Under the pieces are notes generated by a model. That model was not told the origin of the DNA and did not search any database. It worked only from the letters and a program-made list of their open reading frames with translations. Source: Candidatus Latescibacterota bacterium (GTDB lineage: Bacteria; Latescibacterota; UBA2968; UBA8231). Taken from it: 64,000 bases of DNA. How positions within the stretch are numbered: position 1 is the first letter of the stretch; every line of letters begins with the position of its first letter. Of this stretch, positions 11,320 through 39,138 are shown in pieces. The stretch covers positions 4,768,001 to 4,832,000 of the forward strand of contig OZ241867.1 in the NCBI GenBank assembly GCA_965203175.1, in the 5' to 3' direction. The position numbers and the translations under genes are program-made.

Positions 11320-13158
11320 TCACTCTTCGGCCAGTCCCATCAGCCGGCGACCGACGTCCGTGAGGCGATTCGGTGTCCAAGCCGGCTCCCAAGTCAATTC
11401 AACAACGACAGACCGGACGCCCGGTAGCTGTTCCAGCCGCGCCCGCAGTGGTTGGGCAAGGAAGTTGTACTTTGGTCGCCCACGGTGCGGCATCGTCATC
11501 ACCACGCGAACGTCGTTGCCGTGCGTGCGCACATCGTAGATGTAGCCCATGTCCACTAGGCTAGCGTCCACGGTGTTGAACTGGTCCTCGCGAACCTCCC
11601 GCATGGCTTCCCACAGAGCGCGCTTCCGCGGCCAGTCAGCGGGGCGCTCGCCAATACGAGCTAGGGGTTGGCCCCCTTCCGATGCCTCGTCGATCCAGTC
11701 CGCAGGTGCGGGCACGTCCACCGCGACAATCAGAGGAGACAACAGTCGCTCGCGCAGCGCTTCCAGCCCAACGGCACCGCCCTGCTCAGGGTATGGTGCC
11801 AGCAGGTAGGCGTTGCGCTGCACGAGGGACAAGCCGGTCTGGAGCCAAGCGCTGTCGCGCAGCATGGGCCGGCACCAGACCGACGCGTGCGGCGGCTGGC
11901 CCGGCTTGGCATGGTCGAGGGTGACGTCGAGGTGCTGATAGAGCTTGGCTTTTGACGTCGCCTCCGGGCCGGCAGTGGGCGATCCTTCGAGGTGATGGTC
12001 CAAATAGATAGCAAATAGGCTGTCCCGGCTCTGACGATGGTAGAAGCCCACGCCCCAGACGTGGTCGATCTGCTCCGGCGGCACCGGCCCCTCGTGGACG
12101 CGACCGGCTTCATCCATCCACAGGGACGCGTCGAAAGGCCGGCCGCCGAAGTACCACTCGTCATCACGGGCCACATGCGCACAGAAGTCGCGTGTGGCCT
12201 CCATCCGGCCATCCTTCAGGAAATAGGGGACTCCGGCGTAGAACGTATAGGTCAGGTCCATGAAAAAGCGGCTGGGCGTGAATAGCGGGTGTACTGGACT
12301 GTGGGGGAAGCCAAAACGCCGCACACGGACGCACAAGGGACCGCGTACCACTTCGTAGTGGGGACACTCGGCCCAGTTTGTCACCCGCATTTTCTGAAAG
12401 GCACCAGCCGTGGTGTAATCGTGGGCCCAGTCGATATTGGGTGGCTCGCCGTGGCCGTTCCCGTGCGTGGACAACCGCAGCCCGCCTAGGTGCCACTTGG
12501 GGGTCAGAGACTCCAGTTGGCCCATCTGCCGGGAGAGGGCGGCCACGTAGTGGGGGGTCTCGATCTCCACACCGACACCCTCTCCCCTGATGCTCAGGCG
12601 GCTCGGGTAGTCGGGCAACTCGGCGGCGGGGTTGCCGCAGAAGATGAGAAACACGGCCTGACCAGCGGCGGGGACGTCGGCCTCGAAGACCAAGTGGGCG
12701 AACCAGTATGGACCGCGACGGACCGCGCCATAGACTTGGCTGCAAACCTCGCACGGCCGGCCGCTGTCGAGCCGGGCGACACGCAGCTCGCGTTCCGGCG
12801 CGGTCACCCTTTCCGCAGGCATCGCCACGAGGAGGTCCAGCGGCTCGGACTGCCGCGCTTGGCCGATAGGCTCCCTGAGCCGCACGGTCTGGCACAGCTC
12901 CCAGCCGTCGGCCCATCGGGACCAGGGCTTGGGTAGCTGCTCAGTCAGGTGCCACCCGGTGGCGGGCAGGTCAACAGGCCCTGGGTCTGCACGTAGCATG
13001 CGCTCGTTGGCGATGGTGTCCTTGATGGAGTCGGCCACGCCCAGAGCCAACTCGTGGTTCCCTGTGCGCAGCGCCCGCCGCAGAATCTCGACCTTGGTAT
13101 CGACATCATCGGTGCGGTGGGCCCAAGTGGGTTCAAAGTCTTGCGCGTCGGCGGCCAT
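11320..13158 (-). CDS. Large hypothetical protein with C-terminal DUF59/MIP18 (Fe-S assembly/PaaD-like) domain
   Basis: C-terminus EAMREV...SLVDMGYIYDV...VVMTMP...VVELTWEPAWTPNRLT matches DUF59; GGAGG RBS before ATG 13158. Confidence 0.75.
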   Translation of the reverse strand: MAADAQDFEPTWAHRTDDVDTKVEILRRALRTGNHELALGVADSIKDTIANERMLRADPGPVDLPATGWHLTEQLPKPWSRWADGWELCQTVRLREPIGQARQSEPLDLLVAMPAERVTAPERELRVARLDSGRPCEVCSQVYGAVRRGPYWFAHLVFEADVPAAGQAVFLIFCGNPAAELPDYPSRLSIRGEGVGVEIETPHYVAALSRQMGQLESLTPKWHLGGLRLSTHGNGHGEPPNIDWAHDYTTAGAFQKMRVTNWAECPHYEVVRGPLCVRVRRFGFPHSPVHPLFTPSRFFMDLTYTFYAGVPYFLKDGRMEATRDFCAHVARDDEWYFGGRPFDASLWMDEAGRVHEGPVPPEQIDHVWGVGFYHRQSRDSLFAIYLDHHLEGSPTAGPEATSKAKLYQHLDVTLDHAKPGQPPHASVWCRPMLRDSAWLQTGLSLVQRNAYLLAPYPEQGGAVGLEALRERLLSPLIVAVDVPAPADWIDEASEGGQPLARIGERPADWPRKRALWEAMREVREDQFNTVDASLVDMGYIYDVRTHGNDVRVVMTMPHRGRPKYNFLAQPLRARLEQLPGVRSVVVELTWEPAWTPNRLTDVGRRLMGLAEE

Positions 13159-25783: not shown

Positions 25784-26689
25784 ATGAGCGAAACCCCCAT
25801 AAAAATCACCCCCCAACAACAGCGGCAGTTCGACGAAGACGGCTTCTTCCTCGTCGAAGACGCCCTGCCGCCCGACCGCATCGCCGCACTGTTGCAACGG
25901 CTCGACGAGTTGTACGACCGCTACCGCCAAGAGCGCAATCTCGATCCCCGCCAAGCCTTTCAGATGCGCAATATCGCCACCGATTCCCTCTTTAAGGAAT
26001 TGGTGGACTACCCCCCCATTTTGCCTCTAATTGTGGACCTGATGGGCTACAATATCCAGCTCCGCACGTCGCACCTCGACGTGCGCCCGCCACAGGATCC
26101 AGCCGACGGAGAGCACGAGTTAGGTGCCCCGGACAGTTTTTTCCCGTGGCACGCCGACGGTCCCGACTACGGCTGGGCCGCGGTCGATGGAGTGCTGCCG
26201 TTTATGGAGATGAAGGTCGGCTATTATTTAACCGACCTGACCCAACCTTTGAGCGGTGCCATTTGCGTTGTGCGCGGCAGCCATCGCCAATCGCCGTGGC
26301 TTAACGAGGATGCACGCCGCGTCGATCCCGCGCGCATCGTCGAAGTCAACGTCGATCCCGGCACCGCGCTGGTTTGGCGCACGGCCTTGTACCACTGCCT
26401 GACCCCCAATCTATCCGACCAACCGCGCAAGTGCCTGTACTACGGCTATCAGCACCGCTGGATCCGCCCCTCGGATTACGAGCACCAAGCCCCGGAAATT
26501 TTGGCCGGGTGCGACCCGGTGCGGCGTCAGCTCTTAGGCGAATTGGGCACCGGCAGTACGGCCTATGCTGGCGACGACCCCTTGGTGCTGCCAGTGTCGC
26601 GCTATTGGCGGCCCAAAGACGAGGATATCCCGCTCAAAGCTTGGGCGGAGAATTATCGGTCTAACTTAAAGGAGGAGACCGTCCCGTGA
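25784..26689 (+). CDS. PhyH family dioxygenase
   Basis: FDEDGF, WHAD, YLTD..GAICVVRGSH, LYHC. Confidence 0.9.
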   Translation: MSETPIKITPQQQRQFDEDGFFLVEDALPPDRIAALLQRLDELYDRYRQERNLDPRQAFQMRNIATDSLFKELVDYPPILPLIVDLMGYNIQLRTSHLDVRPPQDPADGEHELGAPDSFFPWHADGPDYGWAAVDGVLPFMEMKVGYYLTDLTQPLSGAICVVRGSHRQSPWLNEDARRVDPARIVEVNVDPGTALVWRTALYHCLTPNLSDQPRKCLYYGYQHRWIRPSDYEHQAPEILAGCDPVRRQLLGELGTGSTAYAGDDPLVLPVSRYWRPKDEDIPLKAWAENYRSNLKEETVP

Positions 26690-27480
26690 CCCAACAAACC
26701 CTGCGCCACCTCACCCCCGATCAAGTCGAACGCTTCTACCTCGACGGCTGCCTGACCGTCGAGGATGTGCTAACCCCCGATGAGGTCGCCTCTTTAGCAG
26801 CCCACACCGACCGCATCGCCACCGGCGAGTTGGAGCACATCCCCGACACCAGCATCCAGCTCGAACCCGTCTTCCGTCGCGGCGAAAAAGCCGTCACCGA
26901 TCAGGTGCTGGCCGTGCGCAAATTGTACAACATAGCGGTGTACGACGACGTAATGTGGGCCCACGTCACCCACCCCAAAATCGCCGACATCATCGCCGAC
27001 CTGCTCAGTACCGACGACATCAAGATGTACGGCGACCAGCTCTTTATGAAAGCGCCGCGCACGGGCTCGGCGCAGGGCTGGCACCAGGACTCGGCCTCTT
27101 GGCGCGACATTTTCCCCATGGACTTGGTCTCTGCCTGGACTGCCATTGACGCGGCCACCCGCGACAACGGCTGCCTCAACTTTGCCCCGGGCACCCACCG
27201 CTGGGGCATGTTGCGGGGCGAGCGCTTAGCTCCTTTTGTCGCCGATCTCGAAAGCGGCGGCTGGCCCATCCGGCCCGCTCCCCTGCGCGCCGGCAGCATC
27301 AGCTTCCACCACAGCCTAACGCTGCACCAGAGCAACGCCAATCTGACCGGCACGCGACGCCGGGGCTATGCCGTGCACTACATGCGCGCGACTTCCTGGC
27401 GCGACGAGGCAGTCACCGACGCGCCCAAGATGCCGCCCTTCAAGCAGGTGCGGGGTCGGTCTTTTCCTGGGAGGGTTTGA
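26686..27480 (+). CDS. PhyH family dioxygenase
   Basis: F..DG, KAP..G..WHQD, AWTAID....NGCL..PGTH, LH.S..N; GTGA overlap. Confidence 0.92.
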   Translation: MTQQTLRHLTPDQVERFYLDGCLTVEDVLTPDEVASLAAHTDRIATGELEHIPDTSIQLEPVFRRGEKAVTDQVLAVRKLYNIAVYDDVMWAHVTHPKIADIIADLLSTDDIKMYGDQLFMKAPRTGSAQGWHQDSASWRDIFPMDLVSAWTAIDAATRDNGCLNFAPGTHRWGMLRGERLAPFVADLESGGWPIRPAPLRAGSISFHHSLTLHQSNANLTGTRRRGYAVHYMRATSWRDEAVTDAPKMPPFKQVRGRSFPGRV

Positions 27481-27483
27481 GGA

Positions 27484-27562
27484 TATATCCCACACCGGAA
27501 GGCATCTGGCGTGGAATCGTTTGAACGACCTGAAAGTAAGGTTAGAGCGGACAGAAGATTGA
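27484..27562 (+). pseudogene. Possible decayed 3' end of an SNF2/DUF3883 helicase gene
   Basis: Reads YIPHRKASGVES then, after a 1-nt shift, LNDLKVRLERTED*. Resembles the YI...GVxSVNYDLxxLLxRAE terminus recalled for these helicases and the clearer remnant at 31942. Confidence 0.35.
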
Positions 27563-27567
27563 TGATG

Positions 27568-27601
27568 AAAAAGACAAAAAGAAACGCCCCTTGCGGGGCG
27601 T
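27568..27601 (-). terminator. Rho-independent terminator, minus strand
   Basis: Minus strand reads ACGCCCC-GCAA-GGGGCGT followed by TTCTTTTTGTCTTTTT (perfect 7-bp stem, GNRA loop, U-rich tail). Confidence 0.75.
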
Positions 27602-27692
27602 CAGGCCGAAGATTCTATCTCCAGCGGGGTGATGTAGAAATATAATATTAGTTGGCAGTTGTCAATTGCAATAAATACCGGGAGATGAAAAT

Positions 27693-29213
27693 ATGAACGG
27701 TCTAGCCACACAGGACGCACTTGAACTCGAAGTGGCTAATTTCGGGCCGATCGTCGAGGCCAAGATTGATTTGCGTCCGCTGACCGTATTCGTCGGGCCG
27801 AGCAACACGGGGAAATCCTATCTGGCGATCCTGATCTATGCGCTGCATCGGTTTTTTAGGGCAGGTCCCTACCCTATAGAACGGCCGGTTACAGGCCCAA
27901 TCTCTCAATTTCTAAAGGGCGAAGAGCCGTACTTCCACCTGCCCGGTGCCGAATTCGACCGCATCTTACAAGCATTACGAGAATGGGAAGTAGAAAACCA
28001 CGAGCGTGGTGCGGCTCTGTCGGCTCCGGTCGTGGACTTGGTGCTTCCGCTACTCCGAGACGTTGATGGTTTTAAAGAGGTGCTCGATGAGGAAATCACG
28101 AGGTGTTTCGGCGTAGATGGCACAAAGAATCTGATTCGCCATTCGGGCAGCAACAAGGCTGAGGTTACCTTGCAAAGCAGCGGATTGGGAGAAGGCGGCA
28201 ATACGGCACCGTTCAAATACGCCCTTGCGATGACGAGGACGGGACCTCAGCTAATCACCGTTATCCCCGAGGGGGCACCTTTGCGGGTCGAAGAATCGCC
28301 GGAAAGGTATGGTTACTCTTCGAGATTTCTTAGCTGGCGCGACGATATAGACAGGAAGCTGGGCGTGTGGGAAGTGTCGCAGGACCTTGCCAATTCCGTC
28401 CTTTCCTTCATCCTTGGCCCGATGAGCCGCCCTGCTCATTATCTCCCTGCTGATCGCACAGGCGTGATGCACGCTCATCGCGTGCTCCTCGGTTCCTTGC
28501 TCAACCGTGCCTCGCAATCTCGGCTTCGCCAAGATGATCCGCTGCCAGACCTTTCCGGCGTTGTCGCCGATTTTCTCAAGCAACTCATCGAATTGGGCGA
28601 TCTTGCGGGACGTCAGAGCAACAAAGCAGACGCTCTGGCCAAGCGCATTGAGCAAGCGATCCTCACAGGCTCGGTTCAAATCAAAACGTCGGCAATGGGC
28701 TATCCGCTGTTTTTCTATAAACCCGACGGATGGAAAAATTCTCTACCTCTGATGAACACCTCGTCGATGGTGTCGGAACTCGCGCCAGTGGTCTTGTATC
28801 TGCGCCATGTCGTTCAACCCGGCGAGACCCTGATCATCGAAGAACCAGAATCTCACCTGCATCCGGCCATGCAGGTCGAATTCATCCGCCAAATCGCGGC
28901 GCTCGTCAATGCAGGCGTCAGGGTGATCGTCACGACGCACAGCGAGTGGGTGCTGGAGGAACTCGCCAACATCGTACGGCGCTCCGAACTTCCCAAGGCT
29001 CGTCGCAAGGAGATACCTCGGGGTGATTTCGCACTGCCTTCTGACCAAGTGGGCGCATGGCTGTTCGAGCCGAAGCGCCGCCCCAAGGGATCGGTGGTGA
29101 GGGAAATTCGTCTCGACGATTCAGGGCTTTATCCATCCGAATTTGATGAAGTCGCACGCGTACTCCACAACGACTGGGCCGATATTTCTAGCTGGATCGG
29201 AGAAACCGAATGA
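27693..29213 (+). CDS. ABC-type ATPase of the AAA_15/AAA_21 (AbiEii/OLD-like) class, defence-associated
   Basis: NFGPI, GPSNTGKS Walker A, YLPADRTG, SSMVSEL signature, LIIEEPESHLHP Walker B, TTHS. Confidence 0.9.
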   Translation: MNGLATQDALELEVANFGPIVEAKIDLRPLTVFVGPSNTGKSYLAILIYALHRFFRAGPYPIERPVTGPISQFLKGEEPYFHLPGAEFDRILQALREWEVENHERGAALSAPVVDLVLPLLRDVDGFKEVLDEEITRCFGVDGTKNLIRHSGSNKAEVTLQSSGLGEGGNTAPFKYALAMTRTGPQLITVIPEGAPLRVEESPERYGYSSRFLSWRDDIDRKLGVWEVSQDLANSVLSFILGPMSRPAHYLPADRTGVMHAHRVLLGSLLNRASQSRLRQDDPLPDLSGVVADFLKQLIELGDLAGRQSNKADALAKRIEQAILTGSVQIKTSAMGYPLFFYKPDGWKNSLPLMNTSSMVSELAPVVLYLRHVVQPGETLIIEEPESHLHPAMQVEFIRQIAALVNAGVRVIVTTHSEWVLEELANIVRRSELPKARRKEIPRGDFALPSDQVGAWLFEPKRRPKGSVVREIRLDDSGLYPSEFDEVARVLHNDWADISSWIGETE

Positions 29214-29689
29214 CGGGATTGGTGGGAACGGTTCACGGGAAGGTTAATAATACGTGTATTGAAAACAGGGGTATTAAGAAGGAAGGGTGCTCGGTGTCGC
29301 TGAAAGATGCACCGCAACCACGCCTAATAATCGATTTCGATAAACCGGGATCGCCACTGGGTAAGAATCAGACACGCTGCGACTACCTGTTCGTCGCCGA
29401 GGATCCTAGCAAGTCCGGCTGGGTCGTGCCGCTGGAGTTGAAGAAAGGCCAATTGGACACCAGCGGAATCGTCCGACAGCTCAAAGCGGGAGCCCACGCT
29501 GCCTCACAGCTTGTGCCCAATACGATGGCTGTCAATTTCCGCCCTGTCGTGGCCTACGGTGGTGGTATCCATACGGCAGAACGGAACGCATTGAAGGCTA
29601 ATCGCAACAAGGTGCGGTTTCATGGAACTGCCGAGCCCGTCCGATTGATCAAATGCGGCGAGCAATTGACCAAGGCGCTCGGCGCATGA
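29210..29689 (+). CDS. Small putative PD-(D/E)XK-type nuclease, partner of the ATPase
   Basis: RCDYLFV...VPLELKKG...IVRQL motif; ATGA overlap with the ATPase. Confidence 0.6.
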   Translation: MTGLVGTVHGKVNNTCIENRGIKKEGCSVSLKDAPQPRLIIDFDKPGSPLGKNQTRCDYLFVAEDPSKSGWVVPLELKKGQLDTSGIVRQLKAGAHAASQLVPNTMAVNFRPVVAYGGGIHTAERNALKANRNKVRFHGTAEPVRLIKCGEQLTKALGA

Positions 29690-29733
29690 CATCTCCCCGC
29701 AAAAAGCTCATTGAAGTCGCCCTGCCGCTCGAA
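29686..29733 (+). pseudogene. 5' remnant of DUF1156-family adenine methyltransferase
   Basis: ATG overlaps the previous stop codon; reads [16 protein letters not shown], the characteristic DUF1156 start, then similarity is lost just before the ankyrin gene. Confidence 0.75.
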
Positions 29734-29749
29734 TATCGAGCCGAAGAAG

Positions 29750-31927
29750 CTATCTCCGACGAGATGTGGCCACAGTCTCTTTGAGAAAGTCCTCCACCTC
29801 TTGTAGGCCTTTTTCTTTAGCTAATCTCAAGGGGGTTCTGCCACTATTATCTGGGGTGTTTACATCAGCACCCTTGTTCACTAAAAAACGCACCGCCTCT
29901 AAACGGCCCCACTCGGTGGCTTCCATCAAGGCCGTCTCGCCGTTATTAGTTTGGGCGTTTATATCAGCACCATTTTCTACCAAAAAGCGAACCTTCTCCA
30001 AATCGCCAACCCGCACAGCTTGTATTAAGACCGTCTCGCCGTTATTAGTTTGGGTGTTTAGATCGGCACCCTTACCCACCAAAAAGCGAACCACCTCTAT
30101 GCCAGGGGCGGCTTGCATCAGGGCCGTCCAACCGTATTTAGTTTGGGCGTTTATATCGGCACCGTTTTCTATCAAAAAGTGAACCTTCTCCAAATCGCCG
30201 ACCTGCACAGCTTTCATCAAGGCCGTCTCGCCGTTATTAGTTTGGGTATTTACATCAGCACCATTTTCTACCAAAAGGCGAACTAACTCCAAAGCACCAA
30301 TCCGCACGGCTTTTATCAAAGCCGACTCGCCGTTATTAGTTTGGGTATTTACATCAGCACCATTTTCTACCAAAAGGCGAACTAATTCCAAATCGCCGAC
30401 CCGCACGGCTTTTATCAAGGCCGACTCGCCGTTATTAGTTTGGGCGTTTACATCGGCACCGTTTTCTACCAAAAGGTGAACCAACTCCAAATCGCCCTTC
30501 CGAACCGCTTGCACCAAGACGGTCCAACCGCGTTCATCTTGGGCGTCTATCTCGGCACCCTCACCCACCAGAATGCGAACCACCTCTAAACGGTCCCACT
30601 TGACGGCCTCCATTAAGGCGGTCCAACCGCGTTCATCTTGGGTGTTTATCTCGGCACCTTCACCTACCAAAAAGCGAAATACTTCCAAAGCGCCGAGCCG
30701 AGCCGCCTCCATCAAGGCCGTCTTGCCGCTATTGTCTTGGGTGTTTAGTTCGGCACCATTTTCTACCAAAAAGCGAACCACCTCCAAAGCACCAATCCGC
30801 ACGGCTTTTATCAAGGCTGCCGCGCCATATTTGTCTTGAGCGTTTAGTTCGGCTCCGTTTTCTACCAAAAAGCGAACGACCTCCAAGTCGCCGACCCGCG
30901 CCGCTTGCATCAAGGCCGCCCTACCGTCATTAGTTCGGGCGTTTAGTTCGGCTCCGTTTTCTACCAAAAAGCGAACCATCTCTACGCTATTTGGGGCGGC
31001 TTGTATCAAGGCTGTTTCGCCGATATTAGTTCGGGCGTCTATCTCGGCACCCTGATTCACCAAAAAGCGAACCATCTCCAAATCATCGACCCTAGCCGCC
31101 ATCATCAAGACCGTCCAGCCGTATTTAGCTCGGGCGTTTAGCTCGGCACCGTTTTCTACCAAAAAGCGCACCATCTCCAAATCGTCCTCCCGCGCCGCTT
31201 GCATCAAGGCCGTCCAGCCATATTTAGTTCGGGCATTTATATTGGCACCCTCACCTACCAAAAAGCGCACCATCTCCAAATCGCCGCCTAAAACAGCCCA
31301 GTGCAAGGCCGTCTTGCCATCCTCAGTTCGGGCATTCGCTCCTGCTTTCGCCACCCAGCGTTCTACCAAAGAGCGCACAACCTCTACATGGGCAACCCCT
31401 ATCTCTGGGTCGCCGCCCCAGGAAGCCAAGTCCAAGGCTGTCCAGCCGTTTTTATCTTGGACGTTTATGTCAGCACCGTTGTCCATCAAAAAACGTACTA
31501 TCTCTACATCGCCTTCTCCGGCAGCTACCATCAAGGCTGTCCTGCCGCGACCAGTTTGGACGTTGATATCGGTGCCGTTATCCACCAAAAACTGCACCAT
31601 CTCTACATCGCCTTCCCTGGCAGCCACCATCAAGGCTGTCTCACCTTGGTCAGTCCGGACGTGGATAGCCATCCCTGCATCCATAAATAGCTGTACCGCG
31701 AACACATCCCCCTTTTCCACGCGCTCGAAGAAAGAAGACTGGGTATATTGAATTCCCCGCTCGCTGAGCTCGCTGCGAGCCTGCTCAAGGGTTCGGGGTT
31801 GGTAGGAGTCGTCAGTCGAATCCTGCTCGACGACCTTTTTGTCCCCTCTATCCTCACCCTCCACGACACTCACTAGCAATAGGCCAACTAGGCCGATCAC
31901 ACCTGTCACGCCTTTCCAGCTTTTCAT
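29750..31927 (-). CDS. Secreted ankyrin-repeat protein (roughly 19-20 repeats)
   Basis: Signal peptide; tandem 33-aa G.TALM.AA..GDLE.VRFLV.NGA.IN units; several near-identical 99-bp DNA units around 29.9-30.5 kb. Confidence 0.96.
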   Translation of the reverse strand: MKSWKGVTGVIGLVGLLLVSVVEGEDRGDKKVVEQDSTDDSYQPRTLEQARSELSERGIQYTQSSFFERVEKGDVFAVQLFMDAGMAIHVRTDQGETALMVAAREGDVEMVQFLVDNGTDINVQTGRGRTALMVAAGEGDVEIVRFLMDNGADINVQDKNGWTALDLASWGGDPEIGVAHVEVVRSLVERWVAKAGANARTEDGKTALHWAVLGGDLEMVRFLVGEGANINARTKYGWTALMQAAREDDLEMVRFLVENGAELNARAKYGWTVLMMAARVDDLEMVRFLVNQGAEIDARTNIGETALIQAAPNSVEMVRFLVENGAELNARTNDGRAALMQAARVGDLEVVRFLVENGAELNAQDKYGAAALIKAVRIGALEVVRFLVENGAELNTQDNSGKTALMEAARLGALEVFRFLVGEGAEINTQDERGWTALMEAVKWDRLEVVRILVGEGAEIDAQDERGWTVLVQAVRKGDLELVHLLVENGADVNAQTNNGESALIKAVRVGDLELVRLLVENGADVNTQTNNGESALIKAVRIGALELVRLLVENGADVNTQTNNGETALMKAVQVGDLEKVHFLIENGADINAQTKYGWTALMQAAPGIEVVRFLVGKGADLNTQTNNGETVLIQAVRVGDLEKVRFLVENGADINAQTNNGETALMEATEWGRLEAVRFLVNKGADVNTPDNSGRTPLRLAKEKGLQEVEDFLKETVATSRRR

Positions 31928-31941
31928 GCCGCCGTCTCCTC

Positions 31942-31987
31942 AACTACGACTTCGCCAAGCTGCTGGCGCGGGCCGAATCCCAACCTG
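31942..31987 (+). pseudogene. 3' remnant of SNF2/DUF3883 helicase gene
   Basis: Reads NYDFAKLLARAES, matching the ...SVNYDxxxLLARAE.P* terminus of helicases that precede DUF1156 MTases (recalled, not searched). Confidence 0.6.
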
Positions 31988-32492
31988 AGCAACTTGTATC
32001 TTGTCGTCCTGTGCAAAAAAGATACTCAACAACTGGCTGGTTTGCTCTTTATCAATCATGGTCCAAGGCTTGGACAAGGATGACTAGCGCGCTATCTTGG
32101 TCTTTCGAAGATAAAAAAGGATAGAATAGTATACGCAAGATCGCTAGCTGCGGAGGCGGCAAAGGCCAAGACAAGCTATCGCGGGAGATCAATTTTCGCT
32201 ATTTTTTTACGGGTGCCGATTACGAGGGCTTGCATCTGAGCCGAGGGGGAGACCGGTCGGATGAATTGATGGCGCATATATAGCGAGATTCGCCAACACC
32301 TCGATAACGGCTAGTCTCTGCACTACAGTGCTTGGGAGAGGCTTACGGCGAAACCGTGACGGTGCAGGAACATATCATGAATCAACCGACAGCATGAGCA
32401 GCGCGGACAAGCACAACCTTGGCGAGTAAGCGAGGACTATATTCAATTCGGAAGTCTAGCGGACAGGCTGTAGAGCAAGAAAAGGAGAAATC

Positions 32493-33293
32493 ATGGCGAA
32501 GCCGTTCCTTCGTTGGGCAGGCAGCAAGCGTCAGATAGTAAAGAGGCTATCCGAGTATTGGCCCGGAGGAAACACGCGGTATATCGAGCCGTTCGCGGGT
32601 TCCGCGTGTCTCTTCTTCGAGTTGGAACCTCGCTCTGCCCTTATCGGAGATATTAACTCTGAACTGATCGAGATGTACGAGGTAGTCCGAGAACGTCCCT
32701 ACGATCTTCACGAGTCTTTGAGTCGTTGGAATAACGATCAAAACGAGTACTATCGTGTACGAAGCATGAAATCCTCGATACTAAACAATGTCGATCGAGC
32801 AGCTCGTTTCATATATCTCAACAGATTTTGTTTCAATGGTTTATATCGAACCAATGGAAGTGGCCACTTCAATGTGCCTTATGGAGGAGGCAAGTCCGGA
32901 TCAATTCCTTCAATAGAAGTATTAAATGAAGCAAGTAGAGTTTTGGCTAATTCTCGATTGATTTCTGGAGACTTTGAAGAAATTTTAAGAGATGCAAAAA
33001 AAAATGATTTTATATATTTAGATCCGCCATTTTCTATGGTAGACAGGAGATCTTTTACCGAATATGCACCTGAATCCTTTAGAGAAAAAGACTTGATTCG
33101 GCTACGAGAGACAATTCACTATCTCGACAAACTTGGTGCTGTATTTCTTTTGAGTTATGCTGACTGTGATGAGGGAAAACGGCTTGCCAAAGGTTTTCCG
33201 ACTTATCGAGTAGAAATCAAAAGAAATATTGCCGGATTTCCTAGCAGCCGAAGATCGGTGACTGAACTCATCGCGACGAATGCCGCTATCTAA
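32493..33293 (+). CDS. Dam-family (D12 class) N6-adenine DNA methyltransferase
   Basis: PFLRWAGSK, YIEPFAGS, RFIYLNRFCFNGLYRTN..GHFNVPYG, FIYLDPPF; AAGGAG RBS; AT-rich. Confidence 0.93.
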   Translation: MAKPFLRWAGSKRQIVKRLSEYWPGGNTRYIEPFAGSACLFFELEPRSALIGDINSELIEMYEVVRERPYDLHESLSRWNNDQNEYYRVRSMKSSILNNVDRAARFIYLNRFCFNGLYRTNGSGHFNVPYGGGKSGSIPSIEVLNEASRVLANSRLISGDFEEILRDAKKNDFIYLDPPFSMVDRRSFTEYAPESFREKDLIRLRETIHYLDKLGAVFLLSYADCDEGKRLAKGFPTYRVEIKRNIAGFPSSRRSVTELIATNAAI

Positions 33294-33307
33294 GTGAGGG
33301 AGTTTCA

Positions 33308-34324
33308 ATGAGCGAAGAGAGAAGCAATCATGAAGGTGTCTCAGTGATTCCGAAAGGAGAACTGATTTACCTCGGTGTTGATGAACTCCGCCCAAGTCCG
33401 CACAATCCGCGTAAGCTCTTTGATCCTGAACCGCTTGCAGCACTCAAAAAAAGTATCCAAGAGCATGGAGTACTTGTCCCACTGACTGTCTATTCTCAGC
33501 CTGGTCAGGATATATACGCGATTGTAGACGGAGAGCGCCGTTACAAATGTTGCTCCGACCTCTGCAAGGAAGGAGTCGATATAAGAATTCCAGCAAATGT
33601 TGTCGCTCCTCCCGATCCGATGGCATCCCTAATATATATGTTTAATATCCACCAGTTCCGGCAACAATGGGAACTGATGCCGACTGCACTTGCTCTGAAA
33701 GCTGTTATAGAAGAATTGGAAATAGATGACCAGCAGGAATTGACCGAACTAACTGGACTTAGCGATCCTCAAGTCGAGCGCTGCAAAATTATTCTTTCGT
33801 TTCCTGATCGATATCAAGAGCTGTCAATGGAGCATGATCCACAGGCAAGAATACCATCTAATTTCTGGGTCGAGCTTTATCCTGTATTGGAACTTGTGGA
33901 GAATCTATTACCTGGTCTAATAAAAGAGGAAGGGCGTGACGGAGTTACCGACCGTCTGATCGATAAATATCGTGATAAGCGAATCAAGAGTGTCATTCAT
34001 TTCAGGCGTATACTAGAGGCATATGATGTGCAAGAAAATAAGGAGGGTGTAGAGGTCGTAGCAGACAAATTGAGAGAGTATATTTTGAGCCCGGAGATGG
34101 AGACGCGGGATACATTCGATGGATTCATTCTCGACTCAAGACGAGTCCAGAAAGCTACTCAGGCTGCAGACAGGTTCCTTAATGATCTACAAAAGGCGAA
34201 GATCGATCATGCAATAGATTATAAAGATGAGCTAATTCAAAAACTTATGAATGTACGTCAATTTGTTGATGATCTCTTAGCTAAGCTTGAAGGTGAAGAT
34301 GCACCACAAGAGGAGGATGCTTGA
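33308..34324 (+). CDS. ParB/Srx N-terminal domain protein
   Basis: LRPSPHNPRKLFD..L..LKKSIQEHGVLVPLTV...YAIVDGERRY; HTH-like middle; no adjacent ParA. Confidence 0.88.
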   Translation: MSEERSNHEGVSVIPKGELIYLGVDELRPSPHNPRKLFDPEPLAALKKSIQEHGVLVPLTVYSQPGQDIYAIVDGERRYKCCSDLCKEGVDIRIPANVVAPPDPMASLIYMFNIHQFRQQWELMPTALALKAVIEELEIDDQQELTELTGLSDPQVERCKIILSFPDRYQELSMEHDPQARIPSNFWVELYPVLELVENLLPGLIKEEGRDGVTDRLIDKYRDKRIKSVIHFRRILEAYDVQENKEGVEVVADKLREYILSPEMETRDTFDGFILDSRRVQKATQAADRFLNDLQKAKIDHAIDYKDELIQKLMNVRQFVDDLLAKLEGEDAPQEEDA

Positions 34325-35142
34325 TTCTACTTAGAGCAGTCTCTTATGTCCGAGCAGCTTGGCGACTTCGGAGATACGAACCTAAAAAGGTTACCTTAAG
34401 GAGCTTGATCGAATGGACTCGACAGTTTCCAAAAGACTATCGAACTGATTTAATTCGACTAGTTGCGAACCTAAGGTTTATCTCAGAAAAAGAGACTATA
34501 GGGTACCTTGTTGATTTAAATCAGAAGGTTCTTTGTGCCTTACAAAAAGATGGTATAGATATCCGTAACGTCATATATGTTTCAACCAGCACAGCGGGAA
34601 GTAGCAGTAGTGTTATGTTAAGCCTACTGCGCGATCATGCAAATCTCGAACAACGAGGAGCAACGTTGCTGCACTATGGTGAAGCAATGAAGATTCAGCG
34701 ATATACTAGGAAACTCAAACGTGGTGCAATCGTGTATGTCGATGACTTCGCGGGAACGGGAAAGCAGTTCATTCGATCACGTCGAGACGTAGCAGAATAC
34801 GTTGTCGGTGTATTCTCGGAGTTCTTCTTGCTCCCATGTATCTGTGAAGAGGCACAGTCAAAAATCGAAGCTGCCGGCATAAAACCGCTGAGTGGGTTTA
34901 TTCATAAAAAATCCGAACGTCCGTTTCTTGATAATTGTGCCTTTCTAAAGCCAAAACAGCGCAAAAGACTTTTGATGTTGTCCCACAAGTATTGGAATGA
35001 GAAAATCGCCCTCGGTTTTAGTGGTTTGGCAACCAATGTTGTCTTTTATCGTACCACACCAAATACGACGCCACTAATTTTTCGGGGGAAACGTGGTCAG
35101 GCACCTGTCTTCGGAGTTATTCCTAGGTACGACGACCAGTAG
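34321..35142 (+). CDS. Phosphoribosyltransferase-like protein (conflict-system type PRTase)
   Basis: AGSSSS loop, IVYVDDFAGTGKQF PRPP-binding motif, C-terminal LGF...VVF...PNTT..IF...W/F...PR pattern; TTGA overlap with ParB gene. Confidence 0.8.
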   Translation: MILLRAVSYVRAAWRLRRYEPKKVTLRSLIEWTRQFPKDYRTDLIRLVANLRFISEKETIGYLVDLNQKVLCALQKDGIDIRNVIYVSTSTAGSSSSVMLSLLRDHANLEQRGATLLHYGEAMKIQRYTRKLKRGAIVYVDDFAGTGKQFIRSRRDVAEYVVGVFSEFFLLPCICEEAQSKIEAAGIKPLSGFIHKKSERPFLDNCAFLKPKQRKRLLMLSHKYWNEKIALGFSGLATNVVFYRTTPNTTPLIFRGKRGQAPVFGVIPRYDDQ

Positions 35143-35178
35143 ACTTGCCCAGATAATACCACGTAAGTATGCGTTTTT

Positions 35179-35301
35179 AAAGACCTCATCGAAGTCACCC
35201 TGCCACTCGATGCGACCAACGCCATGTTGGCACGAGAGAAGTAGATTCTTCGACACGGACATCCGAGCACGCTGTATCTGTGATGGGCACGGTGGTCGTT
35301 G
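35179..35301 (+). pseudogene. Decayed 5' part of DUF1156-family methyltransferase
   Basis: One frame reads [39 protein letters not shown], versus the family start [40 protein letters not shown]; two in-frame stops. Confidence 0.88.
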
Positions 35302-35447
35302 GATTCTATACGAGCGGCGATTTAGGAGTTTTTCCAAGGCTTGGGCCAAATAACTGTCGTCCTATCTTGATCTTTAGTCGTCCAAAAATCGGCACGTGGA
35401 CAGAGCACTAGGCACCACCAACTCGGCCAACCCAAAGGAGCAAAGAC

Positions 35448-36317
35448 GTGGACAAATACCTCTATACGGTCTCAGAAGAAGAAAAATACTACTTCGACCT
35501 GCGCGGCTACCTAGTCGTCCGCAACGCCCTCACCGCCGAGGAAGTAAGCGAGTGCAACGCCGCCATCGACCACTTCGCCGACCAGATCTCTGCTTATCCC
35601 GGCACCCTCGCCCGCGGCTCAAGCGCGCTGCAAGGCACGACCAGCCGCCAGCAGCTCACCGGCATGCTCGGTTGGCCGTCCCCCTACCGCGAACCCTTTC
35701 GCCGCCTGCTGGTCCATCCCACCATCGTCTCTCGCCTCAACGAATTCAGCGGCCCGGGCTTTCGTCTCGATCACGGCCCCCTACTCATCAGCGCCACTGA
35801 GGGCACCGAAGGGCACTACCTACACGGCGCAGGCGAGCCCTTTAGCCCCGCCACTTGGTATCACCAGCAAAACGGCAAAATCTACTGCCGGGGCATCACC
35901 GTGGCTTGGCAACTGACCGACTGCAACCCCGGCGACGGCGGCTTTGCCGTGATCCCCGGAAGCCACAAAACCTGCGAGCCGACCCCGCCCGAGATCCGCT
36001 CGCTCGCAGAGTACGGAGAATTGGTCGTCCAACCCGCCATGCGCGCCGGCGACGTCCTCTTCTTCGCCGAGACCGCCACCCACGGCACGCTGCCGTGGAA
36101 GGGCAAGACGCAGCGGCGCTCCGTGCTCTACAAATACGCCTCCCGGGGCGCGGCCCGAGCTACGGGCAAATACTTCACTCCACAGGCGCGCTACGGCGCT
36201 TGGATCGACGAACTCACGCCCGAACAACAAGCCGTCCTGTACGGACCAGGCGTCCACCACAAGGACCTGCCCCTGCTGGAATCCGACGGCCAAAAAACTT
36301 GGATTGCGGAGGGCTAA
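35448..36317 (+). CDS. PhyH family dioxygenase
   Basis: FDLRGYLVV, LHG, WQLTD..PGDGGF.VIPGSHK, AGDVLFF.E...HGT.PW. Confidence 0.9.
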   Translation: MDKYLYTVSEEEKYYFDLRGYLVVRNALTAEEVSECNAAIDHFADQISAYPGTLARGSSALQGTTSRQQLTGMLGWPSPYREPFRRLLVHPTIVSRLNEFSGPGFRLDHGPLLISATEGTEGHYLHGAGEPFSPATWYHQQNGKIYCRGITVAWQLTDCNPGDGGFAVIPGSHKTCEPTPPEIRSLAEYGELVVQPAMRAGDVLFFAETATHGTLPWKGKTQRRSVLYKYASRGAARATGKYFTPQARYGAWIDELTPEQQAVLYGPGVHHKDLPLLESDGQKTWIAEG

Positions 36318-36318
36318 A

Positions 36319-37182
36319 ATGGATGCGCGCGAATGCTATTTCTGGGATCTCACCGGCTATCTGATCGTCCGCAATGTCCTCACCGCCGAGGAATTAAGCG
36401 AATGCAATGCCGCTATCGATCACTGCATGGACCAGATGCAGCAAAGCCCCGACAATGGCGGTGCCCGAGGAGAGTCTAACGCGCTTCAAGGCACTGGCCA
36501 ACAGACCCTCCCCAACCTGCTCGAATTGCCCCATCCCCACTGTGAACCCTTCCGCCGCCTGCTGGTGCATCCCCAAGTCGTCTGCCGCCTCAACGCAATG
36601 TGCGGCAAAGGCTTCCGCCACGACCACGGACCCTGGGTCTCCTACAGTCCCAAGGGAACCGAGGGCCTCATCCTGCACGGGGCGGGCGAACCCCACAGAC
36701 CCTACGTGGCCTACCACCACCAGAACGGCCAGTTCTACTGCGCTGGCGTCACCGTGACCTGGCAGTTAGCCGACTGCAAGGCCGGCGATGGTGGTTTTGC
36801 CTGCGTGCCGGGCAGCCACAAAGCCAAATTCCCCATGCCTGCCGGCGTGCGCTCCTGCGACGAGCCACTGGACGTGGTCCACCAGCCCGCGCTCAAAGCC
36901 GGCGATGTCATCTTCTTTATGGACGGGGCCCAGACCCACGGCACCCTACCCTGGAAAGGCGAAGCGCCGCGCCGCTCTGCACTCTACAAGTACGCGAGCC
37001 GCACGGCCACCCGCTCTGGCGTCTCCATCGAGTTAGCCGAACCGGAAGTCTATTGGGACGAGGCTATCGTAGAGGGTATGACACCCGAGCAACGCGCCGT
37101 CATGTACGGCCCCTGTTCCAGTATCTCCCAGAAGCTACATTTGCAGGTGGAGGCCGACGGCAACGTTGTGCTCGTCAAGTAA
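36319..37182 (+). CDS. PhyH family dioxygenase, tandem paralog of 35448-36317
   Basis: Shares GYL.VRN.LTAEE.SECNAAIDH, EPFRRLLVHP, LHGAGEP, HQ..NG, PGSHK, HGTLPWKG, LYKYASR. Confidence 0.9.
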   Translation: MDARECYFWDLTGYLIVRNVLTAEELSECNAAIDHCMDQMQQSPDNGGARGESNALQGTGQQTLPNLLELPHPHCEPFRRLLVHPQVVCRLNAMCGKGFRHDHGPWVSYSPKGTEGLILHGAGEPHRPYVAYHHQNGQFYCAGVTVTWQLADCKAGDGGFACVPGSHKAKFPMPAGVRSCDEPLDVVHQPALKAGDVIFFMDGAQTHGTLPWKGEAPRRSALYKYASRTATRSGVSIELAEPEVYWDEAIVEGMTPEQRAVMYGPCSSISQKLHLQVEADGNVVLVK

Positions 37183-37202
37183 ATTTCTCAGCAGAGGCGA
37201 TT

Positions 37203-37985
37203 ATGCTCACTGACGCACAGATCTACCATTTTGCCGTGCACGGCTGGGTGCTACAGAAAGCCGTGTTCAGTCCAGAAGAATGCGAGGCTTTTAAGGCAGC
37301 GCTAGACCGGCTTTACGCGACCGACGTCTCGACCATGGTGCATAAGGACACCGACGACATCAAAAACATCGACAATATGGTCAACCACGAGGCCATCTTC
37401 CGCGAGTGGATTGTTCACCCGAAGATTTTGCCGGTTTTGAAACAGCTCTTGGGCACGCCTCCGCGCTTTGAGTGCTGCCACGCCATGATCAAGTTGCCCC
37501 ATCCCGCACGCCAGAGCGAATGCAGCTCTTTGAGCGATCCTGCGCAAATGTCGTGGCATCGGGGTATCCGTCCCAAATACGGCATTGTCCCGGCGAACAA
37601 CCACCCCTACATCAACACTACCTTCCTCAACAATATCACGTTTCTGACGGATGTAGGTCCGGACGATGGTGGGACTATGATCTTGGACGGTTCACATCAG
37701 ATCGAGGCGCAGGATTGGCGTCAGATTTTTGATCCATCCTCAGTAGTGCAGATTGCGGCTGACGCTGGGGATGTGTTGCACTTCACGGAAGCGCTCGTCC
37801 ACACCGGAGTGCCCATCCTGTCGGAGCGCACTCGCTACACCATGTTCTACGGGTTTACGCCGCCTTGGATGCAGTGCTGGCCGGGATGCTCGCCTACCCC
37901 AGAGGCTATTGAGGCTTGCGAAGGGGAACTAAAGGAGATTCTGGGGGCGCGGACCGGGTACATGGGCCAGTACAGCCCTGAGTAG
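37203..37985 (+). CDS. PhyH family dioxygenase
   Basis: Start MLTDAQ at 37203; F..HGW, WHRG, FLTD.GP..GGT....GSH, AGDVLHFTEALVH. Confidence 0.88.
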   Translation: MLTDAQIYHFAVHGWVLQKAVFSPEECEAFKAALDRLYATDVSTMVHKDTDDIKNIDNMVNHEAIFREWIVHPKILPVLKQLLGTPPRFECCHAMIKLPHPARQSECSSLSDPAQMSWHRGIRPKYGIVPANNHPYINTTFLNNITFLTDVGPDDGGTMILDGSHQIEAQDWRQIFDPSSVVQIAADAGDVLHFTEALVHTGVPILSERTRYTMFYGFTPPWMQCWPGCSPTPEAIEACEGELKEILGARTGYMGQYSPE

Positions 37986-37991
37986 CGCCCA

Positions 37992-38786
37992 TTAAGAAAC
38001 CGTCTGCAAACTCCACTGCTCGCACCCGGCAAAAGGCATGTGCTCCCCCTCGACGTACTGCGGCCGCGGCGCGTACTTATTCCCTACATCGGGCATCACG
38101 TCACCCCGGCACATAATGCACGGACTGCGATCCACAGTGACTCTGGTGCTGGTCGGAATGTAGCGCAGGGTAAGCCCGACCCGCCATTGATCCGAAGTGT
38201 TGGTATTGGACCCGTGAATGATACTGGGGTGGTGGATGGAAATATCCCCCGCCTCCAGTTCTAGATCAACGGCATCAGCGTCGTCGATCTGGTCGGGATG
38301 GATGCCGACGCCAAGGACGTACTTATCCCTATCGAGATCGACCATCTCGCTGCGCTTGAGCAGGCGCTTGGTATGCGTCCCCGGCAAAACCCGCATACAG
38401 CCATTGGCCACCGTCGAGTCCGTGCCGGCCACCCATAACGTGGTGACTTCCATCGGCTCCAAAGGCCAGTACGAGCCGTCCTGATGCCACTGCACGGCTT
38501 GGCCGGTACTGGGTTTTTTGGCGATATAATGCGCCGCAAACATGGCCACATTGGGCCCGAGGAATTGCGCGGCAATATCGACCAACCGGTCGTCGGTGAC
38601 TAGGCGGTGCATAAAGGGATCATTCACCATTAGTTCGTGGTGCAATTGCTCGGGGCGCGTGCCCGGATTCTTTTTAACTAACCAGTGTACGTGCTCCACG
38701 GTCTCAGCGGCTAGCTCCGCATCAATGGCCTTGCGGGCAATGCAAAAGCCCTGCTCGTCGTATGCTTGGCGCAGTGTTGTTTCCAT
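37992..38786 (-). CDS. PhyH family dioxygenase
   Basis: Start METTLR at 38786; K.P..G..V.WHQD..YW, NGCMRVLPGTH, IIHGS..NTS..R. Confidence 0.92.
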   Translation of the reverse strand: METTLRQAYDEQGFCIARKAIDAELAAETVEHVHWLVKKNPGTRPEQLHHELMVNDPFMHRLVTDDRLVDIAAQFLGPNVAMFAAHYIAKKPSTGQAVQWHQDGSYWPLEPMEVTTLWVAGTDSTVANGCMRVLPGTHTKRLLKRSEMVDLDRDKYVLGVGIHPDQIDDADAVDLELEAGDISIHHPSIIHGSNTNTSDQWRVGLTLRYIPTSTRVTVDRSPCIMCRGDVMPDVGNKYAPRPQYVEGEHMPFAGCEQWSLQTVS

Positions 38787-38802
38787 TCGCTCTCTTGCCC
38801 TC

Positions 38803-39138
38803 CTAGGCTCGCCACGCCGGATGGGTAACATGCAGCAAATAGGCCCGTTTCGGCACGGTGATAATCGTCTGCGTACCCTTCTCAATATAACCCAAGTCAC
38901 CTACCTCGTACTGCACCGGCTCCTGATCCGCGACTTGGATCTCCAAGTGCCCCTCCAACATGAAAAAGACCTCGTCGTAATCAAAGGTCCACACCAACCG
39001 GCTGGCCTCTAGATACTCGGTAAAACCGGCCGACAGTTTGTTGCCGACGCCAACAATGGGATCGGAAACCTGCACCGTGGCACCGGGCACGTCAAAAGCG
39101 GCTAAATTTCTCTGGTCCTTCTCGACTTTATAGATCAT
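38803..39138 (-). CDS. Cupin (EutQ-like) protein
   Basis: LSAGF, WT.DYDEVFFMLEG.L, GD..YI.KG, V.HP.W. Confidence 0.8.
   Translation of the reverse strand: MIYKVEKDQRNLAAFDVPGATVQVSDPIVGVGNKLSAGFTEYLEASRLVWTFDYDEVFFMLEGHLEIQVADQEPVQYEVGDLGYIEKGTQTIITVPKRAYLLHVTHPAWRA

Follow-up and report, generated by a model that had tools for sequence, protein, structure and literature searches.

What remains of a defence island once its core genes are gone, and how did the pieces that now lie side by side come together? This question is raised by a 64,000-nucleotide (nt) stretch of the genome of a Candidatus Latescibacterota bacterium (contig OZ241867.1, positions 4,768,001 to 4,832,000), hereafter called the window. 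In it, an island with six long open reading frames (ORFs) extends from the stop codon of one PhyH-family gene (27480) to the start of a second (35448). Its G+C content is 0.43-0.47 over 32-35 kb, compared with about 0.6 outside the island. The original prediction, made from the sequence alone, took this region for the fossil of a defence hotspot with a core of SNF2-helicase, DUF1156 and DUF499 genes, which are the hmaA, hmaB and hmaC genes of the Hma system. That view holds up: fragments of the core lie here and intact islands occupy the locus in relatives. It is likely that the window from 27.48 to 35.38 kb preserves the remains of successive Hma islands between two PhyH-family genes, and that their passenger modules have outlived the core. 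There are two such modules: cargo 1, an ABC-type ATPase gene followed by a small partner gene (gene B), and cargo 2, a trio encoding a Dam-class methylase, a ParB_N-domain protein and a phosphoribosyltransferase (PRTase)-like protein.

Fragments of a lost core

Within the window none of the genes hmaA, hmaB and hmaC is intact. The source genome (G000; related genomes carry similar labels below) consists of one 6.58-Mb contig that is 93% complete by markers. Searches across all of it returned fragments and no intact copy of hmaB, only generic helicase-domain matches for HmaA (best expectation value, E, 8.7e-12) and no match for HmaC anywhere at E<=0.001. Every core gene is lost from this genome and fragments are all that is left, namely hmaB codons 1-16, 6-52 and roughly 314-359 and the last 16 codons of hmaA, accompanied in the window by the tail of an XRE/ImmA-like gene. 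Outside the window, a further hmaB remnant (G000:C1:6122565-6122777) is interrupted by two TAA stops and corresponds to HmaB profile positions 889-958 (E 3.8e-4), so that a second, decayed Hma locus may lie in another part of the genome.

The first hmaB fragment had been described as a DUF1156 start at 29686 that is coupled to the preceding gene, and it is: the start codon overlaps the stop of gene B as ATGA, and 15 of the 16 residues are identical to the start of HmaB in the related genome G123. Alone it is weak by profile (PADLOC HmaB, E 0.029). An unbroken DNA match of 88% to G141 covers window 27681-29732: it begins at the start of the ATPase gene, spans gene B and takes in the first 47 nt of what in G141 is an intact hmaB. 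The second fragment, reported as a DUF1156 start riddled with stops at 35179, proved equally genuine. With its three stops read as X it matches positions 7-54 of the PADLOC HmaB profile (E 7.6e-15) and Pfam DUF1156 (E 4.5e-7; 30.4 bits against a cut-off of 24 bits), and 33 of 48 positions are identical to residues 6-52 encoded by hmaB genes of this genus. A 91-residue minus-strand ORF overlaps this scar (window 35074-35349) and is most likely spurious.

The helicase C-terminus that had been placed at 31942 needed a different approach. Helicase scar peptides gave no match to Pfam or PADLOC profiles, for which they are too short, so this scar was settled through the hmaA genes of relatives. The peptide LNYDFAKLLARAES (31939-31980) is identical at 12 of 14 positions to residues 1160-1173 of a 1175-residue HmaA. 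At the DNA level the scar is 85-92% identical to intact hmaA 3' ends in G146, G102, G144 and G136 (E 1e-20 to 1e-14 per genome), with the match coordinates checked against the ORFs of these relatives.

A weaker helicase end proposed at 27484-27562 had to be rejected, as it has neither a Pfam or PADLOC match nor similarity to the HmaA C-terminus. A different reading frame shows the end of an XRE/ImmA-like gene: GRHLAWNRLNDLKVRLERTED, followed by a stop codon in the frame from 27482, aligns to the C-terminus of a 439-residue XRE/ImmA-like protein of G040 with a HEAAH motif, and the DNA of 27496-27626 is 71% identical to G040rc 12812-12947, which comprises the gene end and a terminator hairpin (E 3e-12). 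Three of the four reported scars are real, and a fifth was added, an internal hmaB fragment (32149-32274) whose local alignment score of 45 compares with a maximum of 23 in 200 shuffles. All features are collected in Table 1.

Table 1. Features of the island and its flanks, in window coordinates.
Feature	Position	Strand	Evidence
Left core flank, PhyH-family dioxygenase gene, hotspot boundary	26686..27480	+	86-94% DNA identity in nine relatives' loci spanning the gene
XRE/ImmA-like gene 3'-end scar (about 22 codons, frame from 27482) with terminator hairpin	27496..27626	+	G040 match
Cargo 1 gene A, ABC-type ATPase (AAA_15/AAA_21)	27693..29213	+	Pfam AAA_15 4.1e-23
Cargo 1 gene B, 159-residue partner, possible PD-(D/E)xK nuclease	29210..29689	+	PDC-M47B match, invariant D...ExK
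hmaB 5' scar, codons 1-16, apparently left by a 10.7-kb hmaB-hmaC-hmaA deletion	29686..29732	+	Counterpart in G123, L050 5400-5446
Ankyrin-repeat gene, 725 residues, hydrophobic N-terminus; locus resident, not Hma cargo	29750..31927	-	Pfam Ank families
hmaA 3' scar: last 16 codons, frame-shifted stop and the next few nt; what is left of an older Hma island at its tail end	31940..31991	+	Relatives' hmaA
Left copy of imperfect 44-nt direct repeat flanking cargo 2, resident	32062..32105	.	Overlapping BLAST matches
Internal hmaB fragment (about residues 314-359; gene nt 942-1077), frameshifts and a stop	32149..32274	+	Local alignment
Dam-class N6-adenine DNA methyltransferase	32493..33293	+	Pfam MethyltransfD12 6.9e-48
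ParB_N-domain protein	33308..34324	+	Pfam ParB_N 1.1e-12
PRTase-CE-family phosphoribosyltransferase-like protein	34321..35142	+	Pfam PRTase-CE 1.5e-24
hmaB 5' scar, residues 6-52, three stops, travels with cargo 2	35179..35322	+	Profile matches, G040 homologue
Right copy of 44-nt repeat; first part diverged (donor-like), last part resident-like	35333..35376	.	Overlapping BLAST matches
Right core flank, second PhyH-family gene	35448..36317	+	ORF list, locus comparison

Intact islands in relatives and the order of events

Fragments of this kind can be placed in time when the same locus is followed through related genomes. By profile search HmaB is present in 20 of the 30 other genomes of the genus and in 61 of the 168 genomes of the phylum, and thirteen loci from relatives were compared after clustering of their ORFs. 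Their HmaA proteins carry the Pfam domains SNF2, Helicase_C and NOV_C and their HmaC proteins HEPN_Swt1 and DUF499. Both match their PADLOC models at E = 0, and HmaB does likewise at the best loci.

The search for an intact locus in related genomes, which the original prediction had proposed, led to G123. Between the same two PhyH-family genes it holds, in this order, a HEC-06-type GmrSD gene (matching HEC-06 at 7.8e-208), the ATPase, gene B, hmaB, DUF433, DUF5615, hmaC, hmaA, a short ankyrin gene and an hmaA 3' scar. G141 and G102 also have an intact Hma island at this locus, and in G146 (hmaB split by a frameshift) and G136 (different right-hand flank) all three hma genes adjoin the same left PhyH-family gene. 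Other relatives have cargo only: HEC-06 alone in G125, HEC-06 with the ankyrin gene in G142, and the DUF433-DUF5615 pair in G139. The leftover in G134 is a truncated ATPase fused to half of hmaA, and additional hmaB 5' fragments are found at the locus in G140, G131 and G102. Several hmaB genes are unusually long, with 1200-1440 residues in one frame that match the 973-position profile in two to three separated pieces (G040, G136, G139, G053, G056 and G058). Long stretches, perhaps inteins, thus seem to have been inserted in frame near profile positions 200 and 455.

Cargo 1 lies directly upstream of hmaB in G123. The window follows that genome up to hmaB codon 16 (29732, equivalent to 5446 of the G123 locus L050) and picks up the match again at L050 16130, roughly 90 nt beyond the stop codon of hmaA; the junction at 29732 is common to G119. 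A single 10.7-kb deletion, shared with G119, appears to have taken hmaB, hmaC and hmaA from beside cargo 1. It had been suggested that the core genes were either lost or never came. Loss is borne out, and the second possibility falls away for cargo 1, next to which the operon is intact in G123.

An older event is recorded further to the right. At this locus the gene order in the genus is cargo, hmaB, cargo, hmaC, hmaA, and therefore an hmaA end marks the tail of an island and not the head of a slot. The hmaA scar stands at the same place in G129, G142 and G123, all of which lack cargo 2, and the first two of which also lack cargo 1. Because genomes without either cargo carry it, the scar must be older than both and is not the left bracket of cargo 2, which was inserted 114 nt downstream of it.

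Between the first hmaB scar and the hmaA scar lies the ankyrin-repeat gene. We tried it as a candidate cargo on account of a PADLOC match (PDC-M72A, 1.8e-135) and rejected it: the match reflects general ankyrin repeats, the N-terminus is hydrophobic, and the gene is present where the locus has no Hma genes. It is found between the two PhyH-family genes in G129 and G142 and, by DNA, in G124, G126 and G135, all without cargo 1 or 2. The gene is built of 99-nt repeats and its length at the locus varies from a 258-residue ORF in G123 to 726 residues in G129, with two overlapping ORFs of 261 and 372 residues in G119.

Could both modules instead have come from the slot between helicase and methylase genes? 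According to the original prediction, each cassette had the 3' end of a helicase gene on one side and the 5' end of a DUF1156 gene on the other, the two cassettes were collected in tandem, and the core was perhaps never present. The order hmaA, cargo (trio and ATPase pair), hmaB, cargo, hmaC in G040 is what such a model would expect, as is the succession of an hmaA end, two small ORFs, an hmaB 5' fragment and hmaB in G137, and cargo 2 of the window does sit between an hmaA end and an hmaB start. However, the first supposed helicase end belongs to the XRE/ImmA-like gene, the core is seen next to cargo 1 in G123, and the hmaA scar is a resident that is common to genomes without both cargos and lies outside the block shared with G040, which starts at 32481. 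As a general account the model is refuted by the shared ancestry of this scar, and we consider it improbable for the locus at hand. Its observations were mostly right, and its interpretation was right in outline and wrong in symmetry.

The closest described counterparts are Hma systems that carry HEC cassettes. The families of the core are the same (SNF2/NOV_C helicase, DUF1156 methylase and DUF499 ATPase, with HmaC as the HEPN/DUF499 protein), ABC-ATPase pairs and GmrSD genes are carried in both, and relatives are intact at the very same locus. In contrast, the core in the window consists of four fragments, a remnant rather than a system, and the order in the genus is hmaB-hmaC-hmaA at this locus, with cargo also upstream of hmaB. 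The main texts of Payne et al. 2024 (10.1101/2024.01.29.577857) and Liu et al. 2024 (PMC11232893) deal with intact systems.

The flanks complete this comparison. The left PhyH-family gene falls into one cluster (cl0) with the flanking gene of the relatives' loci, and a DNA search finds its last 183 nt in most genomes within the genus. Around the island lie six PhyH-family (phytanoyl-CoA dioxygenase-like) paralogues (window 25784-27480 and 35448-38900), which places the hotspot within a cluster of paralogues.

Two passenger modules

Although the core has gone, the five genes of the two modules are open and under purifying selection, with ratios of nonsynonymous to synonymous substitution rates (dN/dS) of 0.15-0.28 against their nearest relatives.

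In cargo 1, the ATPase (dN/dS 0.28 against G141) matches the PADLOC models PD-T4-4_A (5.9e-37) and PDC-M47A (2.5e-28), and thereby resembles the ABC ATPase of two known pairings with a small partner. Gene B (dN/dS 0.25) matches PDC-M47B weakly, at 5.5e-4 and over profile positions 35-111 of 186 only. It differs from the PD-T4-4 partner in having no PD-T4-4_B match in PADLOC at E<=0.01; it belongs to no Pfam family, and in a protein atlas it appears in unnamed clusters only. Residues D58, E76 and K78 are invariant in 8 sequences, and it is this D...ExK pattern that makes gene B a possible nuclease. The module also shows a mosaic: across window 29106-29644, which covers the ATPase 3' end and the greater part of gene B, the DNA is 88% identical to a second Hma locus of G141 (gene B 91% in protein), whereas G119 and G123, which share the flanks of this stretch, have at the same position a gene B allele only about 39% identical to that of the window. 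ATPase C-terminus and partner appear to have been swapped together. The ATPase would sense infection and license its putative nuclease partner.

Cargo 2 probably has another origin. In a DNA search of the family with the whole island it remained unmatched apart from the hmaB start, and within the phylum the trio occurs in one other genome only, G040, with 79-80% protein identity. Window 32481-35246 is 80.6% identical to G040 in DNA, and the match passes the stop of the PRTase-like gene into the first 68 nt of the hmaB scar. In G040 a homologous hmaB fragment follows the PRTase-like gene, then come an ATPase/gene B pair and an intact hmaB of 1440 residues, with hmaA upstream. Because that genome has a homologous fragment at the same place, the block must carry its own hmaB scar. 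The trio and the ATPase pair of G040 both lie between hmaA, which is split into two ORFs, and hmaB, so that homologues of the cargo do occur between helicase and DUF1156 genes, as had been anticipated, and the trio is embedded in an Hma slot.

How the block entered the locus can be guessed from its borders. A search for direct and inverted repeats over 27000-35800 returned mostly the 99-nt ankyrin repeats and missed a 44-nt repeat flanking cargo 2, which was recovered from overlapping BLAST matches. It is single-copy in G129 and scores 24, compared with a maximum of 17 in 3000 control 75-mers. The pattern of its two copies fits an entry of cargo 2 by recombination anchored in the right-hand flank.

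Taken together, the locus may have been built in three steps. An old island would have decayed to the hmaA tail, beside which the ankyrin gene now stands. A second, G123-like island would then have lost 10.7 kb, between hmaB codon 17 and a point some 90 nt beyond hmaA. Finally, the low-G+C Dam-ParB-PRTase block would have arrived with its hmaB 5' fragment already attached, inserted by recombination anchored in the right-hand flank that duplicated 44 nt.

What does the trio do? The methylase (dN/dS 0.15; 79% identical in amino acids to that of G040) matches PADLOC models of type II and orphan Dam-class enzymes at 3e-76. The ParB-like protein (dN/dS 0.15) has 2301 homologues at E<=1e-10. The PRTase-like protein (dN/dS 0.19) matches PRTase_III-A at 6.2e-20. 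The latter resembles the effector of type III-A retrons and the methylase that of type II Dam-class restriction-modification systems, but among the six island proteins there is no reverse transcriptase and, by Pfam and PADLOC, no recognisable restriction endonuclease. The trio differs from both also in its constant partners, a ParB_N protein and a methylase. In a survey of species-representative genomes with a profile made from 20 ParB-like sequences, 73 loci across many phyla encode the ParB-like protein of the trio. Of these loci, 62 have at least 900 nt to either side, and in 55 of the 62 all three genes are present and keep their order. Among the surveyed loci, Hma genes stand beside the trio in G040 only. 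One 500-residue protein, P0045, joins MethyltransfD12 and ParB_N domains and is 69% identical to the ParB-like protein of the window, a natural fusion of the first two genes. In literature searches the trio did not turn up as a described system. A ParB_N domain can have nuclease activity. The methylase would label the cell's own DNA, and the ParB- and PRTase-like proteins would act on DNA that lacks the mark or trigger abortive infection. Cargo 1 and the trio would each work alone, as putative anti-phage systems.

Fragments of hmaB at cassette boundaries

The hmaB 5' ends of the window are not alone. We compared a probe of HmaB residues 1-60 with an equally conserved one of residues 141-200 in 76 genomes of the family. 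With the first, 18 of 103 matches lie in open frames of fewer than 130 residues; with the second, none of 84 lies in a frame of fewer than 200. Half of the short fragments (9 of 18) precede a longer hmaB on the same strand at a distance of 0.9-5.6 kb, separated from it by cargo genes, and two more occur in one G102 island. Units of cargo plus scar appear in differing orders, for example ATPase, gene B, scar, ORF clusters cl9 and cl8 and hmaB in G141, and cl9, cl8, scar, ATPase in G134. Short hmaB 5' fragments thus recur as cassette boundaries, which suggests recombination anchored in hmaB as a mechanism of embedding. New cassettes would enter Hma islands by one-sided homologous recombination in the conserved hmaB and an illegitimate join shortly upstream, and each entry would strand a short 5' fragment behind the older cassette. 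Tentatively, Hma islands could then be seen as recombination-driven collectors of cassettes in which hmaB serves as universal homology anchor, with the consequence that whatever DNA bears cargo and an hmaB start could be joined on ahead of a resident hmaB, and whose arrays of cargo and scar are reordered, passed between distant lineages and outlive the core. We regard this generalisation as possible, though less likely than not.

Several observations speak against these readings. Truncation points are enriched near the start of hmaB and not confined there, with about 12 further N-terminal matches in frames of 150-660 residues. Orthologous scars from related genomes, such as G000 and G119, enter into the tally of 5' fragments, which is therefore not one of independent events. 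The first 60 codons of hmaB show no excess of synonymous conservation (codon identity 0.53-0.56, compared with 0.33-0.68 in the rest of the gene), and hence nothing marks the 5' end as a special recombination site. For cargo 1, a structure model of gene B from an 8-sequence alignment reached a predicted local distance difference test score (pLDDT) of 48 and is unusable. For cargo 2, a search of the same 76 genomes for the right-hand junction and its donor returned only the window itself and a weak match to the resident repeat of G129; the donor is not in the collections, and the order of insertion and decay for this block is a guess.

Site-specific capture in the manner of an integron, with the hmaB 5' end as attachment (att) site and the fragments as its remnants, would account for the strong enrichment of 5' over internal fragments, for the differing orders in G141 and G134 and for a trio that keeps its scar in two families, but it is the least probable explanation we considered: scar lengths vary from 17 to about 124 codons, the hmaB 5' end lacks extra conservation at the DNA level, no recombinase family was found with Pfam and PADLOC among 16 island proteins scanned, a set that leaves most cargo ORFs of the relatives' loci outside, and mobility-associated genes make up only 3.1% of embedded genes in the data given by Payne et al. 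2024 (10.1101/2024.01.29.577857). From the fragment pattern we infer that a fixed att site is less likely than general recombination that uses hmaB as its anchor and makes an illegitimate join shortly before it.

A comparable record arises where genomic islands accumulate in tandem at tRNA genes and partial tRNA 3' ends stay behind. In both cases repeated short fragments of one conserved gene bound successive blocks. Here, however, there is no integrase, the fragments vary in length, and they are the 5' ends of a protein-coding gene.

How does this relate to what has been described for Hma systems? Payne et al. 2024 (10.1101/2024.01.29.577857) report embedded genes in 931 of 1,485 systems and name the HEC systems, several of which were validated, and according to Liu et al. 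2024 (PMC11232893) insertions concentrate at a hotspot between hmaA and hmaBC. The proposal to use the locus as bait for mining new systems is not new, as guilt-by-embedding mining is already in print in these two articles. Pseudogenes were excluded by Payne et al., in whose main text the terms truncated, remnant, fragment and recombination are unmentioned; there, the origin of embedding is addressed only as a "genomic sink" hypothesis and its biological significance is left to explore. Three points were not found in these texts: that hmaB fragments can be used to mark boundaries, that cargo persists once the core is lost, and that the trio occurs as Hma cargo. The supplementary tables may list such cassettes.

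In itself, the locus is an ordinary outcome of a defence island, with the core lost and the passengers kept. Across relatives it can be followed step by step how Hma-embedded modules persist under purifying selection after the loss of the system, which supports their autonomous action. The position of the trio in the Hma slot of one genome, G040, is guilt-by-embedding evidence for a defence role of a module that is widespread across many phyla. That short hmaB 5' fragments are enriched where cassettes meet in turn bears on the origin of embedding. If Hma islands do collect cassettes through hmaB, this would explain how genes become embedded in Hma systems, and orphan hmaB 5' fragments would flag genes once carried as Hma cargo, uncharacterised systems like the Dam-ParB-PRTase trio among them.

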